Shown: positions 5,822 through 19,706, numbered from the stretch's first letter. The stretch is 64,000 nucleotides of DNA from an uncultured delta proteobacterium (GCA_963816145.1 CAWFJP010000017.1:64001-128000); one strand, 5' to 3'. Numbers and translations are program-made. Notes: generated from the letters alone by a model not told the origin.

Positions 5822-7729
5822 ATGACGACTGATACAACCCAAGAAACCCACGGCTTCCAGGCCGAAGTCAAACAACTCCTCAACCTGATGATTCACTCCT
5901 TGTATTCCAACAAGGAGATTTTTTTGCGCGAGCTGATTTCCAATGCCTCGGACGCGGCGGACAAGCTGCGTTTCGAAGCGCTTACCGACAACGCGCTGAT
6001 GGAAAACGATCCGGAGTTGAAAATCCGCGTCTCCTACGACCCGAAAGCGCGCACGGTGACCGTGACCGACAACGGCATCGGCATGTCGCGAGATGAAGTC
6101 ATCGCCAACATCGGCACCATCGCCAAATCCGGCACGCGCGAGTTTTTGACGAGTCTGACCGGCGACCAGCAAAAGGACGCCAACTTGATCGGCCAGTTCG
6201 GCGTGGGTTTTTATTCGTCCTTTGTGGTGGCCGACAAAGTGACCGTGGTGACGCGCCGCGCCGGGTTGACCAAAGAGCATGGCGTGCGCTGGGAATCCGA
6301 CGGCGGCGGCGAATACACGCTGGAAGTCGTCGAAAAAGAATCACGCGGCACCGAGGTCACGCTGCATTTGCGCGACGGCGAAGACGAGCTCGCCAACGGT
6401 AACCGGCTGCGCGGCATCATTCGCAAGTTCTCCGACCACATCACGCTGCCGATCGTGATGAAGGAAGAGGAATGGGACAAAGACAATTCGCGCTACCGCA
6501 CCACGGGAAAGGATCAAACCGTCAACCAGGCGAGCGCGTTGTGGGCGCGCTCGAAAAACGACATCACCGAAGAACAGTACCATGAGTTTTACAAGCATGT
6601 GGCGCACGACTTCGAAGCGCCCCTGGTTTACACTCACAACAAGGTCGAAGGCCGCAAGGAATACACGCAGCTCTTATATATCCCGGCGCGCGCGCCGTTC
6701 GATCTGTGGGACCGCGATCACCGGCGCGGCATCAAGCTCTACGTGCGGCGCGTGTTCATCATGGACGACGCCGAGCAATTGCTGCCAACCTATTTGCGCT
6801 TCGTGCGCGGCGTGATCGACTCGGCCGACCTGCCGCTCAATGTGTCGCGCGAAATCCTGCAGGAATCGAAAGACATCCAGGATATCCGCTCCGCCAACGT
6901 CAAGCGCGTGCTGTCGATGATCGAAGACCTCGCCGAGAAGGACAAGGAAAAATTTGCGACCTTCTGGAAGGAGTTCGGCAAAGTCATCAAAGAAGGCGTG
7001 GTGGAGGACTACGGCAACAGCGAGCGCATTGCCAAAGTGCTGCGCTTCGCGTCCACGCATACGGATACCGAGGCGCAGGAAGTCTCGCTCGCGGATTACG
7101 TTTCGCGCATGAAGCCCGAGCAGGAAAAAATCTATTACGTCACCGCGGAAACCTTTGCCGCCGCCAAGAACAGCCCGCACCTCGAAGTGTTTCGCAAAAA
7201 GGGCGTTGAAGTGCTGCTGATGTACGACCGTGTCGACGAATGGGTGACGCAGCATTTGATGGAGTTCGAAGGCAAAAAACTTCAGTCGGTGGCGAAAGGC
7301 CGTCTGGAATTGGGCAAGCTCGAAGACGAAGCCGAAAAAAAAGCCCAGGAAAAAGAAGAAAGCGAGTCCAAGCCCTTGCTCGAACGCATCAAAACATCCC
7401 TCGGCGAATCGGTCAAGGATGTGCGCGTGACGTTGCGGCTCACCGATTCACCGGCGTGTCTGGTGGCGGACGAGCATGACATGGGCGCGCACTACGAGCG
7501 GCTGCTCAAAGCCTCCGGCCAAAACCTGCCGGCGTCCAAGCCCATCCTTGAAATCAATCCGCAGCATCCCTTGGTGCTGCGTTTGAAGTATGAGCCCGAC
7601 GAGGCACGCTTTACCGATCTTGCCAAAGTGCTTTTCGATCAGTCGCTGCTCGCCGAAGGCGGCCAACTGGAAGACCCGGCCGGGTTTGTCAAGCGATTGA
7701 ATCAGTTGATGCTGGCTTTAGGTAACTGA
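5822..7729 (+). CDS. htpG: Molecular chaperone HtpG (Hsp90)
   Basis: '[33 protein letters not shown]', '[10 protein letters not shown]', '[11 protein letters not shown]', 'LEINP.HP'. Confidence 0.98.
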
Positions 7730-7868
7730 CTGGTGGTCGACACCAAACGATAAAGGGGTTGCAATAAATTCCGACGTCTAACGGCGCGCGCTCGCTTCAT
7801 CAAAATAGTTAAGTTGTAAAAGCCCGCGTCCGCTCGTTGGACCGATCGTCGGACCGAGACCGGGAGCA

Positions 7869-9392
7869 TCAGACCTTGTTCTTGGCGGGGGTCTCGGATC
7901 CGGCCGGCTTCCGCGACCGCGTCGACGCGCGCGCTGGGGGCTTCTTCGGGATCGCCTTTCGCGGCACACGCGCTGCCACAGGCGCGGCGGCCGCGACGCG
8001 GGCGCGCGGACGTCTTGGCTTGGTACGACCGGGGGGCTCGGCGGTCGTGTCGGTCGGCATCGGCTCGTCATTGAACCGATCCTCCTCGGCCCGCTCTTCC
8101 AGCTCGAATCGGTCGACAGCGTCGACGGGTTGCGTATCCAGCATGCCTAGGCGCCCGGCTTCCATCACTTCTTGGGATGGGGCGATTGCGGGCGACGGGC
8201 CGGTCTGCTGCAACGCCGGCCCCTTAAGCACGCGCAGGCCGCCTCGACGATCCCGCTCGAGTCGCACGAGGCCCTCGCGCTGACACGCGCGCAACAGATC
8301 GATCAGCCCCATGAAACCGTATCGGCGCTCGTCGAAGCCGCCCCGGGTGGCTCGTAAGAGCTGCTTGACGTTGCGCAAGTACATCGGCCACCGTGCCGCT
8401 GTAGCAGCGGTCAGGATCTGGCCCACCAGACGGACCCCGTCAGCCTGATCGCCCTTCGGGACGACGGGTGCCTCGATCGGGGCGAGCTGAGACACCTCCT
8501 CCACGGCCTCGGCCAACACCGCCCGCGGCTCGGTCTCTGCCTCGGGCGCAGCCGCGCGACCCTCGTCGCGCGTCTCTGCGACGGCGACGGGCCGGCTCGC
8601 CACGACCGCGGTCGAAGACTCGCTCTCGTCGAACTTCTCGTTGAGCTCGACCATGACGCTTCGACCGGTGTGCTTGAGCTGGGCGAGACCCGATTGCGCG
8701 AGCTTCTCGACGAAATCGAGGAATGACGACGCACCATAAGTCCGCTCGGAGAAAGTCGAGTCGAGCTGGAGCAGCGTGCTCTTGAGCAGGCCGATCTGCG
8801 GCGAGACTTCCCGCTCGGACAGAATTTTCAGCGCGCGTCGCACGATGGGGAAGGCCTGCGCGATGGGCGCGGTGGCGGCGGACGTCACCGGGCGGTCGCC
8901 CTTGGCGACCGAGCGGCGGCCGCGCGTCAGGTTCTCATAGGCGATGAACTCGTGGCAGTTGCGCTGGAGGATGGTGCTGGTGAACGCCCTGCCACCGACG
9001 ACGAAAACTTTCTTGTCGTATTGCTTGAGCTTCTCGACCAGCGAGAGGAAGTCGCTGTCGCCGCCAACGATCACGTACGCGTTGATATGCGGGTGCGTGA
9101 AGGCCATTTCGAGGGCATCGAGCGCCAGATTGATGTCGGCGCCGTTCTTGTCGCCGCCGGGCGTCAAGTTGCGCTGCACCAGGCGGATGGCGTGTTGGGT
9201 GAGGTGGCGACTGTACTCGCCCGCGCGCGTCCAGTCGGCGTAAGCGATCTTGGTGACCACCTCGCCGCGCTCCTTCAAGGCGTCGAGGATGGCGCCGACG
9301 TCGAAATTCTCACCAAGCGTCGATTTGACGCCAATCTCGATGTTGTCGAAGTCGATGAACACAGCGATGTTAAGACGGTCCTGATGGGGCAA
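7869..9392 (-). CDS. NYN (LabA/DUF88) nuclease domain protein with two LOTUS/OST-HTH domains and a basic tail
   Basis: 'AVFIDFDNI', 'KNGADI.LALDA', 'GGDSDF..LV.KL'; LOTUS motifs 'FSERTYGASSF' and 'FDERRYGFMGL'. Confidence 0.85.
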   Translation of the reverse strand: MPHQDRLNIAVFIDFDNIEIGVKSTLGENFDVGAILDALKERGEVVTKIAYADWTRAGEYSRHLTQHAIRLVQRNLTPGGDKNGADINLALDALEMAFTHPHINAYVIVGGDSDFLSLVEKLKQYDKKVFVVGGRAFTSTILQRNCHEFIAYENLTRGRRSVAKGDRPVTSAATAPIAQAFPIVRRALKILSEREVSPQIGLLKSTLLQLDSTFSERTYGASSFLDFVEKLAQSGLAQLKHTGRSVMVELNEKFDESESSTAVVASRPVAVAETRDEGRAAAPEAETEPRAVLAEAVEEVSQLAPIEAPVVPKGDQADGVRLVGQILTAATAARWPMYLRNVKQLLRATRGGFDERRYGFMGLIDLLRACQREGLVRLERDRRGGLRVLKGPALQQTGPSPAIAPSQEVMEAGRLGMLDTQPVDAVDRFELEERAEEDRFNDEPMPTDTTAEPPGRTKPRRPRARVAAAAPVAARVPRKAIPKKPPARASTRSRKPAGSETPAKNKV

Positions 9393-10257: not shown

Positions 10258-10548
10258 ATGCGGATCGTCGCAAAGAAGACTCTGCGCGAATTTTGGGAGC
10301 GCTGTCCGGACGCTGAAGATCCCCTCTTGGCGTGGTTTCGCGAAGTTGAAAAGGAAGATTGGAGCAAGCCGTCGCAGGTAAAAGATAAATATAGAAGTGC
10401 AAGTTTTGTCGGGGATCGCATTGTGTTCAATATCAAAGGAAATGATTACAGGCTCGTTGTGAAAATAAATTATCCGTACCGGGTTGTTTATGTGCGTTTC
10501 ATCGGCACGCATAAAGAATACGATGAGATCGACGTTGAGGAGGTGTGA
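10258..10548 (+). CDS. higB: HigB family mRNA interferase toxin
   Basis: 'MRIVAKKTLREFW...W..P..VK..Y..AS.VG.RIVFNIKGN.YRLVV.I.Y....VY.RFIGTH.EYD.I'. Confidence 0.92.
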   Translation: MRIVAKKTLREFWERCPDAEDPLLAWFREVEKEDWSKPSQVKDKYRSASFVGDRIVFNIKGNDYRLVVKINYPYRVVYVRFIGTHKEYDEIDVEEV

Positions 10549-10549
10549 G

Positions 10550-11776
10550 ATGAACAATATTCGAGCAATTCGAAGCGAAGCAGATTACGACGCCGCGCTC
10601 GCGCGTATCGATGCCCTTATGGACGCCGAGAGTGGTACCCCCGAGGGCGAAGAACTCGACGTGCTTACTGACCTTGTTGAACTTTATGAGGCGAAGCATG
10701 TTCCCATGGGTTTTCCGAGGCCGCTTGAAGCAATCCGCTTTCGCATGGAGCAGGCAGACCTTTCACCACGTGATCTTGTTCCGTTCATGGGCAGCCGTGC
10801 AAAAGTCTCCGAGGTGTTGTCCGGCAAGCGCCCACTCACCATGCAGATGGCTCGCGCCCTGCACGCCAATCTCGGCATTCCCGCTGATGTGCTGTTACAG
10901 CAACCGGGTGGTGAGTTGCATTCGGCGCTTGAAGGTACCGAGTGGCACCGCTTTCCATTGGCGGAAATGGCAAAACGTGGATGGATCGAAAAGCGTCGCA
11001 ATCTTGACACTCTTGCCGAAGAAATCATGCGGGATCTGATTGGTCGGGCGGGAGGCGAATATGTTTTGCCTGCAGCGTTCTTTCGGAAGAATGATCACGC
11101 CCGCATCAACGCGAAAACGGACCCATACTCTCTCAAAGTTTGGTGCTGGGAAGTGCTAGCGCGAGCGAATGCCCATAAGCTGCCTGTCAGCTTTAAACCC
11201 GGCACGGTCGATCTCACTTTTCTGCGGAAAGTGGCCACATTGAGCTGGTCGCAAGACGGTCCCCGACTCGCCCAAGAGTTCCTCGCTAACCACGGTATTC
11301 ATCTCGTGTATCTTGAGCATTTACCGCGTACGCACCTCGACGGCGCGGCTCTTCAACTCGCCGACGGCACACCCGTTATTGGACTGACCTTGCGCTACGA
11401 TCGGCTCGACAACTTCTGGTTCTGCTTGCTGCACGAACTTTCTCATATCGGCCGCCATATGAACGAGACGAAGAATGAAGCGTTCGTCGATGATCTGAGT
11501 CTTCGTGACGTGCAAGGCGCGCGACGTGATCCACGAGAAACCGAAGCGGATGAGTGGGCCGAGAATGGTCTCATTCCAGAAGACATATGGAATACGAGCA
11601 AGGTAAAGGACAAGCCAACGCCGCTGGCCGTTATGGAACTAGCCCAGCGGCTCGGCATTCACCCCGCCATCATTGCCGGTCGCATCCGCCACGAGACACG
11701 GAACTTTCGCCTGCTGTCCCATTTTGTGGGGACAGGCACGCTACGAAAACAGTTTCTTAAAGGCGGAGAGCAATGA
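10550..11776 (+). CDS. higA: HigA antitoxin-XRE HTH fused to ImmA/IrrE (DUF955) Zn metallopeptidase
   Basis: N-term 'IRSEADYDAAL...L..L.ELYE..H.P'; HTH 'GSRAKVSEVLSGKR.LT'; 'RYDRLDNFWFCLLHELSH' HExxH and 'ETEADEWA'; GAGGAGG RBS before ATG 10550. Confidence 0.88.
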   Translation: MNNIRAIRSEADYDAALARIDALMDAESGTPEGEELDVLTDLVELYEAKHVPMGFPRPLEAIRFRMEQADLSPRDLVPFMGSRAKVSEVLSGKRPLTMQMARALHANLGIPADVLLQQPGGELHSALEGTEWHRFPLAEMAKRGWIEKRRNLDTLAEEIMRDLIGRAGGEYVLPAAFFRKNDHARINAKTDPYSLKVWCWEVLARANAHKLPVSFKPGTVDLTFLRKVATLSWSQDGPRLAQEFLANHGIHLVYLEHLPRTHLDGAALQLADGTPVIGLTLRYDRLDNFWFCLLHELSHIGRHMNETKNEAFVDDLSLRDVQGARRDPRETEADEWAENGLIPEDIWNTSKVKDKPTPLAVMELAQRLGIHPAIIAGRIRHETRNFRLLSHFVGTGTLRKQFLKGGEQ

Positions 11777-11952
11777 TTTTTTAGCTCCAACATCACAATG
11801 TACGATGTTAAAACATGGCTAATCTTGAGGGGCGTGAGAGACGCAAGTATCGAACGAAGGACTCGACGTGCGCAGAGTTATCTAGAGTTGTAGGATCGAC
11901 TTGAAAGCTAAAGGCGGACCTGAACTCATTTTTGACTGTGGAGGAAGAAGAC

Positions 11953-13509
11953 ATGGCTACACGCACATGGGACAAAGACCGAGCCTCGAAGCGCATCGAT
12001 GCACGCATCGCGGAGCTTCCGATCGGCGACATTGAAATCAAGAAGTTCGTACGCGAGACGGACTTGACCAGTCTCCCGCGGAACGTGGCGTACCGCCTTC
12101 ACGGCGTCCACCTCTATGCCGACATTCTCAATCTGGCGGACATGCTTCACGTAACCGAGGTGGAAGGCGAGACTTGCCACCGGCGGACGCTCCGATTTCT
12201 GAACCTGCATTACCGAGCCGTCCATCGGACGCTTCAGCGGGTGGACGCCATCTTTGTTGACTTTCACAACCAGCGCCTGCACTCCGTGATCGCGAAGCCG
12301 TACGACTCGGAGGTCGATCGCATTCACAAGGCCGTCGCCGTGGCGCAGTTGATCATCGACGTGCTCGCGCAGACCGGCGAGGACGCGGACCATCCTGCCG
12401 CGAAGGTCAGAGTTGGGATCGACACCGGTGAAGCCCTCGCTGTGAACAATGGACGCCGAGGCCATCGGGAACCCCTGTTTCTGGGGGAGCCAGCGAATCA
12501 CGCTGCCAAGCGCGCGTCAGGCGGGAAAGGGACGGGGATCTATCTGACGAGCAAAGCCCGGGAGACGCTCGGTCTGAAGCGCGTTGATAACGAAGATGCA
12601 ACGGCGCTCACAACCGAAGAAATCGCGGCGTCGCAAGACGAGGCTGCTCTGGATGTCACGGCCGACGATATCGTGAAGGAATGGCGCGAGGATCTCAAGA
12701 ATAGCCCAATCGGCGCATTCGGCTTCAGCGGCCATACGCCGCCCTTCAGGACGCTCGACATCGAAGAACTGTCAGTAAAGAACTCGCGGCGTCAGGATGC
12801 GGCTACGGTCTATTCCGATATCGACGGCTTCACCGCCTACGTCACCAAGAACATCACCACTGACACCGCTTCGAAGCATGTCGTGCGCGCGCTCCACGTT
12901 CTGCGCAGTGAACTGGACGCTGTGCTTCACACCGACTTCGCCGGCCGCAAGGTGCGGTTTATCGGGGACTGTGTTCATGGGCTGCTGGTGGAAGGTACGG
13001 CGCAGACGTCGGATGCGATCGAAACAATCAGCAACATGACTCTGTGCGCCGGAGGCATGCGCAGCAGCTTCGAGCTCGCGCTGTCAAAGCTGAAAGCCAA
13101 TGGCACCGACGCGTCAGAGCTCGGGTTGGCAATCGGGTTCGAGTACGGGCCAATGAACGTGACCCGGCTTGGCATCAAGAGCGAGCTCGTGCGCTGCTCG
13201 GCGAGCCGAGGTGTTGTTGCCGCCGAACGAGAACAATCCCGCTGCTCGGGGACGGAGACGGCGATCGGGCCCATTGCGTACGATAGTAGCAATGATGCGG
13301 CGCGCACCGCGTTTGGGAAATCGCGGAAGCGATCCGGGCTGACCTACGACGTCGCTGTCAACGAGCTGGCCGACAAGGGCGATGCGGTCGCGAAGGCTGC
13401 CCGTGCCATGGGGACGGCCGGGTCGCTGAAACCCGCGACTTCGGCACCTTCCGCTTTCAGCTTCCCGAATCGACCGACGGGTCCCGCGAAGCCGGACGGT
13501 TTCGCATGA
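11953..13509 (+). CDS. Tandem-domain class III nucleotide cyclase (PycC-like)
   Basis: Domain 1 'HLYADILN...RVGIDTG...FLGEPANHAAK'; domain 2 'VYSDIDGFT...VRFIGDCV...AIGFEYG'; C-terminal FPNRPTGPAKPDGFA; GGAGGAAG RBS. Confidence 0.85.
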   Translation: MATRTWDKDRASKRIDARIAELPIGDIEIKKFVRETDLTSLPRNVAYRLHGVHLYADILNLADMLHVTEVEGETCHRRTLRFLNLHYRAVHRTLQRVDAIFVDFHNQRLHSVIAKPYDSEVDRIHKAVAVAQLIIDVLAQTGEDADHPAAKVRVGIDTGEALAVNNGRRGHREPLFLGEPANHAAKRASGGKGTGIYLTSKARETLGLKRVDNEDATALTTEEIAASQDEAALDVTADDIVKEWREDLKNSPIGAFGFSGHTPPFRTLDIEELSVKNSRRQDAATVYSDIDGFTAYVTKNITTDTASKHVVRALHVLRSELDAVLHTDFAGRKVRFIGDCVHGLLVEGTAQTSDAIETISNMTLCAGGMRSSFELALSKLKANGTDASELGLAIGFEYGPMNVTRLGIKSELVRCSASRGVVAAEREQSRCSGTETAIGPIAYDSSNDAARTAFGKSRKRSGLTYDVAVNELADKGDAVAKAARAMGTAGSLKPATSAPSAFSFPNRPTGPAKPDGFA

Positions 13510-15293
13510 TCTGGTACTTCCAAGACAGCGCGCGCAGCAAACGGGAGCGGGAGGCGATCGAACGGCTCGCATCGCAGGTTCCCTGGATGACACCGCGTGG
13601 GCTCAGGATCGACGGCTCGTTGCGTCTGATCTGGGACATTGATATCTCGACTGGCGAGCGTACATACCCGGTGTCCTTGCGGTACCCGAACCACTTTCCG
13701 TACTCCCCGCCCGTGGTGCTGCCGCGCGGGGACTCGGACCGATGGTCGTCACATCAGTATGGGCCAGGCGGTGAATTGTGCCTCGAGTACGGTCCGGACA
13801 ACTGGCATCCGGAGATCACCGGCGCCGACATGGTCGTGAGTGCCTTTCGACTCTTGCAAGGCGAAAGCCCGACCAGCGAGGAGACCGCTGTCGCCTCTCG
13901 TCACAAGATCACGCTCGGGCAGTACGTCCGAAACAGGTTTTCGAGATTCGTGATCACGCGGGCTGCGGTCGAACTCTTCGCGACTCTCGACGAGGGTGTA
14001 GCAGTCTTGGGCAAGGCGGTAGGCGCCTTGCGCGAAGAGTCGTGGGTCACCGCTATCAGTTCTGTCTCACTGCCTAGCGGTGAGACTTGGATCGAGCCGG
14101 AGATGCCAGAGCCATTTCGCACTGAAGGATGGGAACGGGATATCGCCGGCTTCAAGTGGCCGGAGGACGTTCGGCTACCGTCAGCGAAGACCCCGGCCGA
14201 CTTGCGCGCAGTGACCGCCGAGCGCGGCTTGGCGATTCCAAAGGTGTCACACGTCCTGCTCTTTCAGGGATCGAGCGTACACGTTTATGGCCTCGGCGAT
14301 GAGGACGGCCAGGTTTGGCGCCCAGTTGTAATTATGCCTCCCCCTCCATCGACACGGCTCGACACCGATCATGCGGTTCTAGCGGAGCGAAAAATCGGCG
14401 TTGTCGGATGCGGGTCCATGGGCAGCAAGATTGCCGTGATATTGGCCCGTTCTGGAGCGAAGAGATTTTTCCTGGTCGACGATGACATCATGCTGCCTGA
14501 CAATCTCGTGCGCCACGACTTGGATTGGCGGGAGATCGGAACTCATAAAGCCGACGGCGTTGCCCGCCGAATTCAGCTCGTCAATCCTGGAGCGATTTGC
14601 GAAAAGCGCCGGCATCGTCTGGGCGGACAGGAATCCAGCGGAAGCGTCGAGACCCTAATTGAGAGTCTCGCCGAGTGCGACATGCTAATCGATGCAACCG
14701 CAAATCCGATCGCTTTCAATTATTTGTGCGCGGCTGTCGCGGTCGCCAAGACGACCCTCGTCTGGGCCGAGGTGTTCGGCGGGGGCTTTGGTGGACTCAT
14801 AGCTCGCCACCGTCCTGGCCATGAACCTGATCCGGCCTCGATGCGCCGGACCATCGAGGCCTGGTGCGCTGATCAAGGCAAGCCGATCCCTCGATCGACG
14901 ACCGATTATGGCGGCGCAGAAGAAGCGGCTCTGATCGCCGACGACGCAGACGTGACTACAATTGCGGCACATGCCGCGCGGCTTGCGATCGACACACTCA
15001 TCTCACGGACGCCCTCAACTTTTCCGCACTCGGTTTACCTTGTCGGCCTCGCAAAGCAGTGGATATTCGACGCACCATTTGACACATATCCCATAGACGT
15101 TGGGCAACCGATGACCTCCGAGGCATCGACACCAGCGAATTCTGAAGAAAGGGCCGCTGAAGTTGCGAGGATCGTCCAGTTGCTAGCGGATCACCAGGAT
15201 GCAGGTACTTTTGCCGGCTCAGATAACCAAACGGATACGGGAGGAACTCCGACGAGCCAAGACTCAGGAGATCGGGGGGCTGCTGATGGGTGA
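13506..15293 (+). CDS. E2-E1 (ThiF) fusion protein, Cap2-like
   Basis: E2 'YPNHFPYSPP...HQYGPGGELCL'; ThiF 'VVGCGSMGSKIA..LARSG...LVDDD......NLVRH'; ATGA overlap with cyclase stop. Confidence 0.88.
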   Translation: MIWYFQDSARSKREREAIERLASQVPWMTPRGLRIDGSLRLIWDIDISTGERTYPVSLRYPNHFPYSPPVVLPRGDSDRWSSHQYGPGGELCLEYGPDNWHPEITGADMVVSAFRLLQGESPTSEETAVASRHKITLGQYVRNRFSRFVITRAAVELFATLDEGVAVLGKAVGALREESWVTAISSVSLPSGETWIEPEMPEPFRTEGWERDIAGFKWPEDVRLPSAKTPADLRAVTAERGLAIPKVSHVLLFQGSSVHVYGLGDEDGQVWRPVVIMPPPPSTRLDTDHAVLAERKIGVVGCGSMGSKIAVILARSGAKRFFLVDDDIMLPDNLVRHDLDWREIGTHKADGVARRIQLVNPGAICEKRRHRLGGQESSGSVETLIESLAECDMLIDATANPIAFNYLCAAVAVAKTTLVWAEVFGGGFGGLIARHRPGHEPDPASMRRTIEAWCADQGKPIPRSTTDYGGAEEAALIADDADVTTIAAHAARLAIDTLISRTPSTFPHSVYLVGLAKQWIFDAPFDTYPIDVGQPMTSEASTPANSEERAAEVARIVQLLADHQDAGTFAGSDNQTDTGGTPTSQDSGDRGAADG

Positions 15294-15714
15294 GCACGTC
15301 TGTGACGAGCTGTTCCGAGTCGTCGATATTTCGGTTCAGCGGTCGGGAGGATCGCAGGTCCATTTCGTACGCGACGCGTCCAGCCATGCCACTCAGCTGC
15401 AGGCGTTCTTTGCGCGTACGGGCAATGATTTCACGCGCTTCAATTACCTCGGCGAGTGGCATTCGCATCCGACGTTTGCGCCGGCTCCCAGTTCGACCGA
15501 CTTCGATTCCATGCAATCGATCGTCGACAATCCGGACGTTGGTGTGAATTTTTTGATACTCCTAGTGTTCAAGCTGGCTAGCCGAAAGAGACTGGCAGGA
15601 ACCGCAACAGTGTTCAGGCCGCATCAGCCATGGACGAGTGTGGTTGTTATGACCGAAGAGAACGGAACGGGCTCGCGTCTTGAGCGCGCGCTGCCTTCGT
15701 GGCTGCGAGGATAG
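15199..15714 (+). CDS. JAB/JAMM isopeptidase, Cap3-like
   Basis: 'EIGGLLMG...YLGEWHSHP......PSSTD' JAMM motif; overlaps 3' end of E2-E1 gene. Confidence 0.9.
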   Translation: MQVLLPAQITKRIREELRRAKTQEIGGLLMGEHVCDELFRVVDISVQRSGGSQVHFVRDASSHATQLQAFFARTGNDFTRFNYLGEWHSHPTFAPAPSSTDFDSMQSIVDNPDVGVNFLILLVFKLASRKRLAGTATVFRPHQPWTSVVVMTEENGTGSRLERALPSWLRG

Positions 15715-15846
15715 TTCACGCGTTGAGCATTCACCCACTCGGTGTTGGCAATCGCCGCGCGAGCACTGTCCTGGGGATTACGGTCTCTGTAAACCGAAGA
15801 CATGGCAGTACGATGATTTTCGCGTTCGTAGCAGAAGAGGATTTCC

Positions 15847-16755
15847 ATGAAAGAGCGTTTTGAGGGTGGCACCGGCCGCGGGTTGCTTCTCGATGTACTT
15901 CAGAAGCAGGACATCGTCCGAAACGACAAGTCGCTCGCCGAAGCGCTTGCCGAGGGAGGAGAGATCGTTCAATTCGACGGCGGCGCGGACATCGTTCGAC
16001 AGGACGGCGCTGACAACGATGTCTTCTTCTTGCTCGCCGGCGATGCGAACGTGCTGGTTAACGATCGCTTTGTCGGGACGCGGACGGAAGGGACGTGTAT
16101 CGGCGAGATGGCCGCTCTCGATGCCGCCGCGCGGCGTTCCTCGACCGTTCGCGCAAATTCGGTTGTCGTGGCGTTGAAGGTTCCGGAACCGGCTTTTCGG
16201 GCAGCGTGTGAGGCGCATCCCCTTGTGTTCAAGGCTCTCTCCCAGCTCGTCTCTCATCGTCTGAGACAACGTTCAGCGTTCGTTCAGCCGCCGAATCCAC
16301 AGCCAGTGCTCTTCATCGGCAGTTCCACTGAGGCACTTTCAATCGCGAACGAATTGCAGGCTGGTTTCAAGTACGACAAGTTCAACGCGATTATCTGGAA
16401 GGACGGAGTGTTCGGGCCCGGCGGCGTCGCCTTTGATTCCCTCGCGCAGATTGCCGGCGGCTCAGATTTTGCCGCCTTCATCATTTCGCCAGACGACACA
16501 GTCATCAGCCGCGAGGCAGAGAAACTGGCCCCTCGTGACAATGTGATCTTCGAGCTTGGCCTCTTCATGGGCGTGCTCGACCGACAGCGCGTCTTCTTGA
16601 TTCGCGAGCACGATGCCGATGTGAAGATTCCTTCGGACCTGCTCGGCATTACACAGGTGACCTACGTCCTGAAGAAGGGCGGCGACCTCACGACGGCGCT
16701 CGGTCCCGTATGCACTGAGCTGCGCAAAGCAATCGCCACGCACGGCGTTCGCTGA
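15847..16755 (+). CDS. Cyclic-nucleotide-binding (CRP-type) domain + TIR NADase effector (PycTIR-like)
   Basis: cNMP domain 'IVRQD..DNDVFFLLAG...GTCIGEMA......RSSTVRA'; TIR 'FIGSSTEAL...DFA.FI..PDD...PRDNVIFELGLFMG...KIPSDLLG'. Confidence 0.9.
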   Translation: MKERFEGGTGRGLLLDVLQKQDIVRNDKSLAEALAEGGEIVQFDGGADIVRQDGADNDVFFLLAGDANVLVNDRFVGTRTEGTCIGEMAALDAAARRSSTVRANSVVVALKVPEPAFRAACEAHPLVFKALSQLVSHRLRQRSAFVQPPNPQPVLFIGSSTEALSIANELQAGFKYDKFNAIIWKDGVFGPGGVAFDSLAQIAGGSDFAAFIISPDDTVISREAEKLAPRDNVIFELGLFMGVLDRQRVFLIREHDADVKIPSDLLGITQVTYVLKKGGDLTTALGPVCTELRKAIATHGVR

Positions 16756-16806
16756 GCGAGAAACGGCGACCCAAAGGGATCGTGTCGGCTTTTTGAAATT
16801 TCAGTG

Positions 16807-17518
16807 AAATTTCAGGGGTCGGGTCTAGCATCGTAGCATTCAGGCTACTACGCGTTGAGTCTGGGAACACAGAAATGGAACACAGTGTCAGGCTTTGGTT
16901 ATTTGTTTATGAGTCCCCCGCCGAACAGATGAGTTAAAATTATCTAAGAACCCAAAGCCCGAAACTATTGTCTATTCCACTATCGTCTATTGCACGAACC
17001 GCAGACATTTCGCGCACCCCTTTGGGAGGACGAAGGTCTAGCGCTAGCTCACCGGCTCCGCCACGAAGATCGGAATCACCCGGGTCGTTCGAGTCTGATA
17101 CTCCGAATACGGCGGATAGGCCGCCACGGCGGCTTTCCACAGGCGTTCTCGCTCCGCCGTGTCGGTGACCTCGCGCACCCGCATCTTCCGCACCACTGCC
17201 AGATCGCGAAGCTCCACTAGCGGATTGGCACGCAGGTTGTAGACCCAAACCGGATTCTTGGGCGCTCCGCCCGTCGACCCGACCAGCACATAGTTGGTGC
17301 CGTCCTTGACACGCATCAGCGGCGTCTTGCGAATGGCTCCGGTCTTGTTGCCTGTGTGAGTGACGATGATGACCGGCAATCCGGTATCGCGCAGCGTGTT
17401 GCCTTCGGCGCCGCCCGTACGCTCGTAGAGTTCGACCTGCTCGCGCACCCAATCTCTCGGGCTCGGGATGTATTCAGCCATGGGCTAATCTCCTCGACAT
17501 GGTTACTCGGCTCCGGGG
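16807..17518. repeat. Direct repeat copy 1 (~710 bp) containing nitroreductase gene
   Basis: Near-identical to 18605-19316 at constant offset 1798. Confidence 0.95.
17044..17481 (-). CDS. Deazaflavin (F420)-dependent nitroreductase family (Ddn-like), copy 1
   Basis: 'T.TGNKTGAIRKTPL...Y.LVGS.GGAPKNP.W.YNL.ANP...YQ.RT.R.IP.F'. Confidence 0.9.
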   Translation of the reverse strand: MAEYIPSPRDWVREQVELYERTGGAEGNTLRDTGLPVIIVTHTGNKTGAIRKTPLMRVKDGTNYVLVGSTGGAPKNPVWVYNLRANPLVELRDLAVVRKMRVREVTDTAERERLWKAAVAAYPPYSEYQTRTTRVIPIFVAEPVS

Positions 17519-17560
17519 ATACTTGGGCACAGTCGCGGGTGTCAGGCTTTGATTCTTTGC

Positions 17561-17962
17561 TCAAGTATTGGCTAAAACCGTCAGTAAGTCGGTTTTTGAA
17601 AAATCTTCCCCCTTGAAGAGCAACGGCAGACCGGTGGCCTTGGCTAGCGCGTAAGAAAAACAATCTCCGTAGTTGAGCCCCGCGCTGTTTCTGCCTTTGC
17701 CATAGCGGGAATAGGCTGCTCGCGCGAGCTCGAGATGCTGCGCGGTGAAGTTTTCGATTTGTATACCGGCGTCTTGGATCATCCGGTCGACGATCTGCGC
17801 GGCCCTGGCGCCGTGCCGATTGAGCATCACGATGTGCAATTCGAGCAGACTCGCCGCGGAAATGAGCGGGGCATCCGCCTCAGCGATCGCTTCTGCGTAT
17901 ACCGCCGCATCGGGCTCCCGGTCGAGGATCGCGATGAGCGCAGAAGTATCGACGACGATCAT
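17561..17962 (-). CDS. vapC: VapC/PIN toxin
   Basis: 'MIVVDTSALIAIL..E', 'LNYGDCFSYALAK....PLLFKGEDF'. Confidence 0.92.
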   Translation of the reverse strand: MIVVDTSALIAILDREPDAAVYAEAIAEADAPLISAASLLELHIVMLNRHGARAAQIVDRMIQDAGIQIENFTAQHLELARAAYSRYGKGRNSAGLNYGDCFSYALAKATGLPLLFKGEDFSKTDLLTVLANT

Positions 17963-18210
17963 CGCGGCAAACCGCTGTCGTCGTAAAGCATCTCTTCGGC
18001 CGATCGTTCATCGATCACAGGCAACCGGCTGCATTGGTCACCCAACTTCAGGAGTTTCGCTGCGAGCGCTTTCCGATTCCGTTGACGCCGCAAGCGTTCC
18101 AGGCGCTCGGTGACCGCGTTGTCCACAGCCTCGGCGATTGTCTCGCCCGTGATGCGCGCCAATTGCTTGGCTCGACGGTGCGTATCGTCGCTCTTTATGT
18201 TCATGCCCAT
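17959..18210 (-). CDS. vapB: VapB antitoxin (Rv0623-like RHH)
   Basis: 'MNIKS....RRAKQLARITGET..EAV..AV.ERL...LYDDSGLP'; 4-nt overlap with vapC. Confidence 0.88.
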   Translation of the reverse strand: MGMNIKSDDTHRRAKQLARITGETIAEAVDNAVTERLERLRRQRNRKALAAKLLKLGDQCSRLPVIDERSAEEMLYDDSGLPR

Positions 18211-18604: not shown

Positions 18605-19316
18605 AAATTTCAGGGGTCGGGTCTAGCATCGTAGCATTCAGGCTACTACGCGTTGAGTGTGGGAACACAGAAATGGAACACAGTGTCAGGCTTTGGTTAT
18701 TTGTTTATGAGTCCCCCGCCGAACAGGTGAGGTAAAATTATCTAAGAACCCAAAGCCCGAAACTATTGTCTATTCCACTATCGTCTATTGCACGAACCGC
18801 AGACATTTCGCGCACCCCTTTGGGAGGACGAAGGTCTAGCGCTAGCTCACCGGCTCCGCCACGAAGATCGGAATCACCCGGGTCGTTCGAGTCTGATACT
18901 CCGAATACGGCGGATAGGCCGCCACGGCAGCTTTCCACAGGCGTTCTCGCTCCGCCGTGTCGCTGACCTCGCGCACCCGCATCTTCCGCACCACTGCCAG
19001 ATCGCGAAGCTCCACTAGCGGATTGGCACGCAGGTTGTAGACCCAAACCGGATTCTTGGGCGCTCCGCCCGTCGACCCGACCAGCACATAGTTGGTGCCG
19101 TCCTTGACACGCATCAGCGGCGTCTTGCGAATGGCTCCGGTCTTGTTGCCTGTGTGAGTAACGATGATGACCGGCAATCCGGTATCGCGCAGCGTGTTGC
19201 CTTCGGCGCCGCCCGTACGCTCGTAGAGTTCGACCTGCTCGCGCACCCAATCTCTCGGGCTCGGAATGTATTCAGCCATTGGCTTGTCTCCTCGACATCG
19301 TTATTCGGCTCCGGGG
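18605..19316. repeat. Direct repeat copy 2 (~710 bp)
   Basis: Near-identical to 16807-17518. Confidence 0.95.
18842..19279 (-). CDS. Deazaflavin-dependent nitroreductase family, copy 2
   Basis: Identical to copy 1 protein except T->S (REVTD/REVSD). Confidence 0.9.
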   Translation of the reverse strand: MAEYIPSPRDWVREQVELYERTGGAEGNTLRDTGLPVIIVTHTGNKTGAIRKTPLMRVKDGTNYVLVGSTGGAPKNPVWVYNLRANPLVELRDLAVVRKMRVREVSDTAERERLWKAAVAAYPPYSEYQTRTTRVIPIFVAEPVS

Positions 19317-19706
19317 TTAATTGCGGGGTCAACCAGCACAACTGCTCGGTTTCACCACAGAAGATAGCATAAAAAGCGTCGGTTCAGGGCTTAGACGGGC
19401 TTTTTCGACCCGGAAATCGGCTTGTTAAGATAAAAAACCAATGCCCCGGAAGGAAATCGAGGTCCATACTTTTAATCCTAGACTGTCTTGCTTCTCCTTC
19501 GGATACGGTCTCGATGGGGATATAGCTGACGAACTTGACAGACTCGGTCTCACCGTTATCAGCGGAACCGTCCCGTTAACCGGGTGTGGTGCTCGTGTCC
19601 GGTGTTAGGGTAAGGCATGAGTTATCGACTAATTGTCGAAGCATCATAGTCAGCGTGAGAGCAATGAACTCAAGAACAAATCTTGCTAGTCCGTGCTTTT
19701 GCAATT

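Follow-up and report, generated by a model that had tools for sequence, protein, structure and literature searches.

Positions 11953-16755 of a 64,000-nucleotide (nt) stretch of DNA from an uncultured delta proteobacterium (GCA_963816145.1 CAWFJP010000017.1:64001-128000; the whole of this stretch is called the window below) hold four intact open reading frames (ORFs), all on the + strand, which encode a cyclase, an E2-E1 fusion protein, a JAB peptidase and a TIR protein with a domain that binds cyclic nucleotide monophosphates (cNMPs). From homology, and from analogy with better studied systems, we consider it probable that these genes constitute a "type II Pycsar" abortive-infection cassette, in which a cyclase primed by ligation would be coupled to a TIR effector that destroys NAD+. 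[quoted passage not shown] The cassette and its parts are as follows:

11939-16766, + strand: the whole cassette, the transferable unit of 4.83 kb, as delimited by the limits of blastn homology
11953-13509, + strand: gene 1, cyclase, 518 residues counted from the ATG; by homology a clade-A PycC with two tandem class III cyclase domains and a Pro/Ala-rich tail of ~45 residues ending in -GFA
13506-15293, + strand: gene 2, E2-E1 fusion, 595 residues; E2 part at about residues 50-137 and E1/ThiF part at about residues 290-440, from Pfam and a family profile
15199-15714, + strand: gene 3, JAB peptidase, 171 residues; predicted Cap3-like JAB/JAMM isopeptidase, from PADLOC, Pfam and the JAMM motif
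15847-16755, + strand: gene 4, cNMP-binding TIR protein, 302 residues; PycTIR-type effector with an N-terminal cNMP-binding domain and a predicted C-terminal TIR NADase

The four co-directional genes thus stand in the order originally given, and the two overlaps noted at that time can be read directly in the sequence: the stop codon (TGA) of the cyclase and the ATG of gene 2 share two bases in an ATGA overlap, and the JAB start at 15199 lies inside the E2-E1 frame, 95 nt ahead of the gene 2 stop. In several relatives gene 2 ends 15-20 codons earlier, and the last ~30 residues of the E2-E1 protein in the window are therefore best seen as a non-conserved extension. A gap of 132 nt separates the JAB and TIR genes, and the TIR gene has an AGAGGA site of its own. 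The ORF lister places the cyclase start at TTG 11932, but the ATG at 11953, upstream of which there is a GGAGGA ribosome-binding site, was preferred, because the homologues, the relative in PDB and the nucleotide homology to a related locus (L001, see below) begin at 11939-11953. An Rfam search found no family, and a tRNA search of positions 1-30000 found none.

Identity of the four proteins

Models from PADLOC-DB v2.0.0 fit all four proteins end to end, with domain calls that are far beyond chance, and none of the four matched any of the CD-NTase models of PADLOC or Pfam. The cyclase is matched over its full length by the PycC model PDLC00762 (714 bits, E 3e-215), contains two stretches assigned to Pfam Guanylate_cyc, and aligns over residues 3-492 with PDB entry 6YII (588 bits, E 1.8e-175). 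According to passages in Hou et al. 2024 (PMC11224242), the 6YII protein is PaPycC and belongs to clade A of the Pycsar cyclases, a clade characterized by two consecutive cyclase domains, and clades A-D convert UTP to cyclic UMP (cUMP); in a second paper (PMC12489823) PaPycC is referred to, in part of the text, as a cUMP generator and PaPycTIR as a cUMP effector. Judged by these homologies, the cyclase of the window is a clade-A PycC.

The roles of the two cyclase halves were assigned by reading of motifs and by conservation among 25 homologues of the long form, i.e. cyclases that adjoin E2-E1. The C-terminal domain holds both metal-binding aspartates of class III cyclases, D289 and D339, and its residues Y287, D289, D291, G292, F293, T294, I337, G338, D339 and C340 are invariant (25/25), as are Y55, D57, D103, R108, N182 and K186 in the N-terminal domain and G516 and F517 in the tail. 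The N-terminal domain has a His in place of the second metal aspartate. We read the protein as a pseudo-heterodimer, that is, as a single chain that would mimic a cyclase dimer and possess one active site. When the halves were compared separately with a clade-B cyclase by pairwise BLASTP, the N-terminal half gave one short match (41 residues, E 2e-6) and the C-terminal half gave no significant match. Y55, D103 and R108 appear to resemble the uracil-reading residues Y50, D94 and R97 of the clade-B enzyme BcPycC, and the Asn/Lys pair N182 and K186 is also kept in the N-terminal domain. The depositors of 6YII reportedly described it as an ATP-binding, cyclase-like protein for which no cyclase activity had been detected.

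Gene 2 is fitted over its full length by the PADLOC E1-E2 model PDLC00855 (654 bits, E 7e-197; the next model reaches 100 bits), and Pfam finds ThiF in it together with a weak match to UQ_con. When a profile of the gene 2 family, built from 25 homologues, was run against PDB, the best match was the E1 domain of Enterobacter cloacae Cap2 (7TSQ/7TO3, E 2e-18), with residues 290-419 aligned to residues 373-497 of the 600 in Cap2, which is the same relative place in the chain; residues 50-137 matched canonical E2 enzymes (UBE2K, E 7e-5). Invariant among the 25 homologues are H83, Q84 and C92 of the E2 part, as well as the adenylation residues G301, C302, G303, D325, D327, N333, R336 and K348 of the E1 part. 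Gene 3 matches the PADLOC JAB model PDLC00893 (207 bits, residues 1-154) and Pfam Prok-JAB, and its JAMM motif HxHx7Sx2D, with E24, H88, H90, S98/S99 and D101, is invariant in 28 JAB sequences. In the product of gene 4, Pfam identifies CAP12-PCTIR_TIR (101 bits) and cNMP_binding, while the PADLOC models for a TIR effector and for PycTIR score 343 and 313 bits, respectively. Among solved structures, those nearest to it are NpPycTIR (8JSJ, 146 bits) and the cNMP-binding domain (CNBD) of PsPycTIR (8JSK). The window protein aligns without gaps to PsPycTIR over residues 1-146 and has G86, E87, A89, R97, S98 and R138; the residues that bind phosphate and ribose are conserved in it, as is the TIR glutamate, Glu236.

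The cyclase tail and its association with E2-E1/JAB genes

A neighbourhood survey of cyclase homologues, of the kind proposed in the original prediction, was carried out by scanning one genome per species, which yielded 80 loci (referred to by numbers with the prefix L) with cyclases of 35-96% identity; neighbours were scored by tblastn of the four window proteins against these loci, and co-occurrence was counted from two anchors, the cyclase and, independently of it, the TIR gene. E2-E1 and JAB directly follow the cyclase in 29 of the 80 loci. In two more, E2-E1 follows without JAB (L008, which reaches the contig end, and L006, where the gene is truncated), and neither is present in the remaining 49, among which we count L080 with its weak partial match. 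Nearly all of the 31 cyclases adjoining E2-E1 share one C-terminus: 29 end in -GFA and one in -GFS (L016), the last having an unrelated end and looking frameshifted (L057), whereas a -GF[A/S] end occurs in none of the 49 cyclases without an adjoining E2-E1. Among complete sequences (n=73; L015, L055, L057, L058, L059, L060, L061 and L068 were left out as truncated or interrupted), 30 of 30 long-form cyclases have this end, versus 0 of 43 others. On a maximum-likelihood tree of the cyclases, built without their last 40 residues, the tail and the E2-E1 trait each need three changes. The long form coincides more or less with a single clade. The exceptions are a gain in L056, which lies inside the short clade, and a loss in L019, which lies inside the long clade, and in both L056 and L019 the tail and the accessory genes switch together.

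A comparable arrangement is known from type II CD-NTases, whose tail is disordered and conserved at its C-terminus; in E. cloacae, the CD-NTase adenylated by Cap2 ends in ...GRFA (as stated in a portion of the Ledvina preprint); a 2025 preprint describes the same tail logic for Thoeris TIR proteins that adjoin Cap2/Cap3. The -GF[A/S] tail therefore likely marks the cyclase as a substrate of ligation, a role that the CD-NTase has in type II CBASS; that a class III cyclase would be ligated is argued here from this analogy and from the covariation. Thus the idea that a class III cyclase has taken the place of the CD-NTase as the ligated enzyme seems right in kind, the tail tracking E2-E1/JAB. Since every long-form cyclase terminates right after -GF[A/S], no precursor would have to be trimmed, and the JAB protein most plausibly acts as a deconjugase.

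In the short form the cyclase gene is followed, with a stop/start overlap, by a gene for a protein of 257-278 residues, which in L039 (7539-8312) has the Pfam domains E2-ntca and E2-Crich and in L025 is located at 7524-8360. Short-form tails carry a (V/I)RP(Y/H) motif 3-10 residues before a variable C-terminus. The cyclase of L039 (Pseudomonas veronii) reads as the 6YII chain over the stretches compared by eye, and by this comparison PaPycC is a member of the short form. By analogy, the long and short forms would parallel the full and the "short" type II CBASS. Upstream of the short-form locus L025 there are two divergent genes (L025:4246-5858, - strand) that, by eye only, resemble a nucleotidyltransferase and a WYL-type regulator; a pairing of these two protein types in such systems is mentioned in a passage of the Chakravarti 2026 preprint.

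Mobility and distribution of the cassette

In a blastn search of the window against all fetched loci, L001 was 91% identical over 4843 nt, corresponding exactly to positions 11939-16766, so that the homology starts 14 nt before the cyclase start codon and ends 11 nt after the TIR stop; homology to L081-L083 also ends at 16766. Because the homology is confined to this interval and the flanks are unrelated, the four genes move as a unit. With the exception of a HigB/HTH-M78 pair in L143, the genes flanking the cassette were not found beside its relatives. The four-gene form exists also in L082/L083, probably one population in two assemblies, at 61-91% protein identity. Identities to the window proteins are 91% (cyclase), 61% (E2-E1), 71% (JAB) and 90% (TIR) in L083, and 90%, 75%, 56% and 43%, respectively, in L002; such sharp differences between modules show recombination inside the cassette. 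The gene order recurs across Acidobacteriota, Alphaproteobacteria and Betaproteobacteria. Just one of the 401 genomes sampled from the phylum, the window's own, gave a match to the full length of E2-E1, three others matching in the E1 part only, and no relative was found in a viral contig collection.

One may also consider a non-immune explanation, namely that a housekeeping cyclic-nucleotide module happens to lie beside an E1-like adenylyltransferase and a metalloprotease; after all, soil bacteria commonly possess class III cyclases, ThiF-like enzymes and cNMP-binding domains. We give this hardly any credence, since the cassette carries its four genes together into unrelated surroundings, their order is the same in the three taxa mentioned, the full-length E2-E1 is so rare in the phylum, the effector is a CAP12/Pycsar-type TIR, and there are toxin-antitoxin pairs in the flanks.

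Proposed mechanism and evidence against it

The data show the gene order, the domain identities, the intact catalytic motifs, the connection between tail and accessory genes and the mobility of the cassette. The biochemistry in all its steps, the nucleotide, the target and the protection against phage are inferred, and the mechanism is drawn by analogy with Cap2/Cap3 of type II CBASS. The E1 half of the E2-E1 protein would adenylate the C-terminal alanine of the cyclase, and the acyl group would be handed to the E2 cysteine, C92. The cyclase would then be ligated to a target and thereby primed, and the JAB peptidase would cleave the conjugates and restrain the system. Upon infection the cyclase would produce a 3',5'-cyclic mononucleotide, most probably cUMP; binding of this nucleotide to the cNMP-binding domain of the effector would let the TIR domains assemble and destroy NAD+, and phage growth would be stopped.

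Several observations weigh against such a reading. First, the sole candidate E1 cysteine, C454 (codon 14865-14867), is conserved in 19 of 25 homologues, the other six having W, S or F in its place. The E1 cysteine of Cap2 is dispensable in vitro, according to part of the Ledvina preprint, and the variability of C454 alongside an invariant E2 cysteine gives a hint that the adenylate may be passed straight to the latter. Second, the JAB protein scores 43 bits against the NCBIfam Cap3 equivalog, whose cutoff is 200, and the top NCBIfam match of both E2-E1 and JAB, 6A-MBL cap2_3, is also far under its cutoff; the two proteins are therefore distant relatives, and not orthologues, of their CBASS counterparts. 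Third, the pattern that connects tail and accessory genes rests on two to three independent switches, and the two independent contrasts on well-supported branches, which agree, are too few for significance in a sign test (p 0.5). Fourth, no sigma-70-like promoter was found in 11500-17100. Fifth, a literature search for experiments on Pycsar systems with E2-E1/JAB found none, which does not establish their absence from print. In this respect the original prediction, which had taken the double-domain version to be open, holds only in part: the clade-A two-domain PycC already has a crystal structure (6YII) and is described as generating cUMP, whereas the form with E2-E1 and JAB is without experimental study in the literature searched. 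Finally, in L001, whose cyclase is 96% identical to that of the window, the TIR stop is followed at a distance of 21 nt by the start of a single-domain clade-B PycC (L001:9908-11522), so that the locus has five genes and two cyclases, and the four-gene form of the window may be a reduced derivative.

The last point leads to an alternative explanation, according to which the window contains the remnant of a five-gene, two-cyclase locus. In such a locus the clade-B enzyme would have made the signal, with the clade-A cyclase and E2-E1/JAB serving as a ligatable sensor or regulator, and the TIR protein would now be orphaned, or the system inactive. The fact that the homology to L001 ends between the TIR gene and the clade-B gene agrees with this, as does the frequency of clade-B cyclases within 6 kb of clade-A cyclases (30 of the 80 loci, comprising 16 of 31 in the long form and 14 of 49 in the short form), loci in which two cyclases may feed one TIR effector. 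Moreover, no clade-B cyclase was found in the 64 kb of the window, nor a clade-B PycC in the host genome (7.8 Mb, 99.5% complete, 6.7% contamination), where only weak generic class III matches were obtained (E ~6e-4). A remnant is nevertheless quite unlikely in our view: all four genes are intact, the catalytic residues are invariant and both metal aspartates of the cyclase are present; no clade-B gene occurs within the flanks covered in 15 of the 31 long-form loci; the same four genes are retained in L082/L083 despite divergence (61% in E2-E1 and 71% in JAB), which argues for maintenance by selection; and PaPycC is treated as an active uridylate cyclase in passages of the literature (PMC11224242, PMC12489823). 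The lack of a clade-B PycC in the host genome leaves the clade-A enzyme as the only candidate source of the signal.

The signal nucleotide

We lean, with modest confidence, towards cUMP as the likeliest signal of the cassette, a view based on comparison of cyclases and their partner effectors, and one that the effector itself, at first sight, contradicts. Position 143 of the window TIR (codon 16273-16275) is Ser and not Asn. In the passages of Hou et al. 2024 (PMC11224242) that deal with PsPycTIR, N143 reads the uracil and R138 stacks it, the N143A and N143S variants are unresponsive to cUMP, and position 143 is equated with the adenine-reading S128 of Escherichia coli CRP. The TIRs that adjoin clade-A cyclases in the genome loci have Asn143 in 61 of 62 cases. 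In contrast, among 116 full-length homologues, the closest to the window TIR in a large protein collection (four of the 120 listed, shorter than 280 residues, were dropped), this position is Ser in 73, Ala in 16, Gly in 7, Glu in 7, Asn in 6, Thr in 3, Val in 3 and Leu in 1, and Ser143 is therefore a stable trait of the subfamily. A further argument against cUMP comes from the Chakravarti et al. 2026 preprint, parts of which report that AlphaFold3 ligand scores favour ATP for the E2-associated Pycsar-like-4 cyclases and that a sister branch uses cyclic GMP (cGMP). These observations would suit a messenger that is a purine nucleotide (cyclic AMP, cAMP, or less likely cGMP) or cyclic CMP (cCMP), with the architecture and the control by ligation unchanged.

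What speaks for cUMP is the company in which the effector subfamily is normally found. Of 80 metagenome loci fetched around relatives of the window TIR, 71 had at least 300 nt downstream, and in 54 of these 71 a clade-B PycC of ~232 residues directly follows the TIR gene. Ten downstream proteins were sampled, and nine of them match PADLOC PycC, eight through PDLC00766 (303-344 bits) and the ninth, a truncated cyclase, with 72 bits; the tenth is an E2 protein. One sampled cyclase scores 192 bits to BcPycC (PDB 7R65, clade B). The residues Y50, D94 and R97 of BcPycC, assigned to UTP recognition in passages of Hou et al. (PMC11224242) and Chakravarti et al., are kept in 55 of 56 such clade-B cyclases, irrespective of the residue at position 143 of the partner TIR (Asn, Ser, Gly, Thr or Glu). 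Ser143 as the sign of a changed signal was accordingly dropped as the leading view, given that TIRs of the Ser, Gly and Thr types pair with clade-B cyclases of the UTP type. In addition, the cyclase of L002 is 90% identical to that of the window, yet its TIR is of the Asn type and only 43% identical, a swap that would be easiest if the signal were shared. As far as can be judged from such comparisons, clade-A and clade-B systems exchange effector genes, and so do systems with effectors of the Asn and the Ser type, which is simplest to understand if the messenger is common to all of them; cUMP is the reported product of both clades. Clade A in particular is described as cUMP-producing in parts of PMC11224242 and PMC12489823, and the preference for ATP is a modelling score. 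We therefore attach only a small probability to a messenger other than cUMP.

A more specific version, and a less probable one still, is that the cassette represents a ligation-primed cAMP pathway, in which the E2-associated two-domain cyclases would use ATP and the Ser143 effector would read adenine in the manner of CRP. If this were true, cAMP would be a housekeeping messenger and an anti-phage alarm at once, the alarm being silenced by ubiquitin-like control of the cyclase.

Relation to known systems

The original prediction had cautioned that the architecture may not be wholly new, and with good reason, as it is in print under two names. Chambers et al. (bioRxiv 2024) speak of "Type II Pycsar" in their discussion, the only place where our literature search found the phrase; the passage groups it with type II CBASS and MBL systems, as systems that use a fused E2-E1 to conjugate a signalling enzyme to unknown targets. 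"Pycsar-like-4", as outlined in a section of Chakravarti et al. (bioRxiv 2026), is a subclade delimited by the E2-like proteins, sometimes fused to E1, and the JAB peptidases that accompany it, and regulation by ligation is suggested there. Both descriptions, in these passages, have the cyclase, E2/E1, JAB and CNBD-TIR in common with the window, and differ from the present analysis in being bioinformatic or made in passing. The window is a further example of this described architecture and not a new system. What is added here is the tail rule, the different tail that goes with the E2-only form, a second cyclase that is frequent among relatives and absent from the window, and the unusual effector subfamily. 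The first three of these (-GFA, the E2-only-form tail and the frequent clade-B cyclase) are unreported in the passages of Chambers et al. and Chakravarti et al. concerned, and the supplements of the 2026 preprint may contain some of them.

Clade-A Pycsar was first described by Tal et al. 2021, according to a passage in Hou et al. 2024 (PMC11224242). Its representatives PaPycC and PaPycTIR share with the window a two-domain cyclase (~57% identity, by tblastn to L039) and a cNMP-binding TIR effector. They differ in that the gene after the L039 cyclase codes for an E2-only protein, E1 and JAB both being absent, in that the short-form tail is (V/I)RP(Y/H) and not the -GFA of the window, and in that the short-form TIR has Asn143. 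The likeness to clade-B Pycsar (BcPycC, 7R65, with PycTIR) is in the effector, whose subfamily normally stands directly upstream of clade-B cyclases, whereas the cyclase of the window is clade A and both the window and the genome are without a clade-B cyclase.

With type II CBASS (Ledvina et al., Jenson et al. 2023) the cassette has in common the E2-linker-E1 fusion of ~600 residues, the overlapping gene for a JAMM peptidase, and a disordered tail with a conserved C-terminus of small residues, -GFA in the window and ...GRFA in E. cloacae CdnD as given in the Ledvina preprint. In contrast, the enzyme of the window is a class III cyclase, of unrelated fold and with a predicted mononucleotide product, the E2-E1 and JAB proteins belong to distant subfamilies, and the candidate E1 cysteine is not conserved. 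Thoeris with Cap2/Cap3 and 6A-MBL likewise combine the Cap2/Cap3 module with a signalling enzyme that bears a C-terminal tail and is not a CD-NTase; there, however, this enzyme is a TIR or MBL protein and not a class III cyclase, and the window proteins score far under the cutoffs of these families.

To our knowledge, cGAS-like enzymes are the only immune signalling enzymes for which ubiquitin-like priming has been shown, and here the same E2-E1/JAB module would serve a class III cyclase of unrelated fold. The pairing of -GFA with E2-E1/JAB provides a genetic handle of three residues on the question of whether the module acts on any enzyme with the right tail. Being compact, at 4.83 kb, and containing the sole cyclase of its kind in the genome, the cassette is a cleaner object for such a test than its two-cyclase relatives.

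Neighbouring genes

The same strand carries, immediately upstream of the cassette, a HigB toxin gene and, overlapping it, a gene for a protein of 408-430 residues with an IrrE/M78 peptidase domain (10258-11776). This HigB/HTH-M78 pair was considered as a regulator similar to CapH/CapP and rejected, as it is absent beside the relatives of the cassette but for the distant copy in L143, and the homology between cassettes begins only 14 nt before the cyclase start codon. On the other side, a direct repeat of 719 nt (16807-17525 and 18605-19323; 98% identical, 14 mismatches) begins 41 nt past the cassette end. Both copies contain, on the minus strand, a gene for an F420H2-dependent quinone reductase, and they bracket a VapBC pair consisting of a PIN toxin (17561-17962) and an Rv0623-like antitoxin (17959-18210). 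Further upstream, at 7869-9392 on the minus strand, there is a gene for a protein of 507 residues in which an NYN nuclease domain and an OST-HTH/LOTUS domain are followed by a long tail rich in Pro, Ala and Arg.

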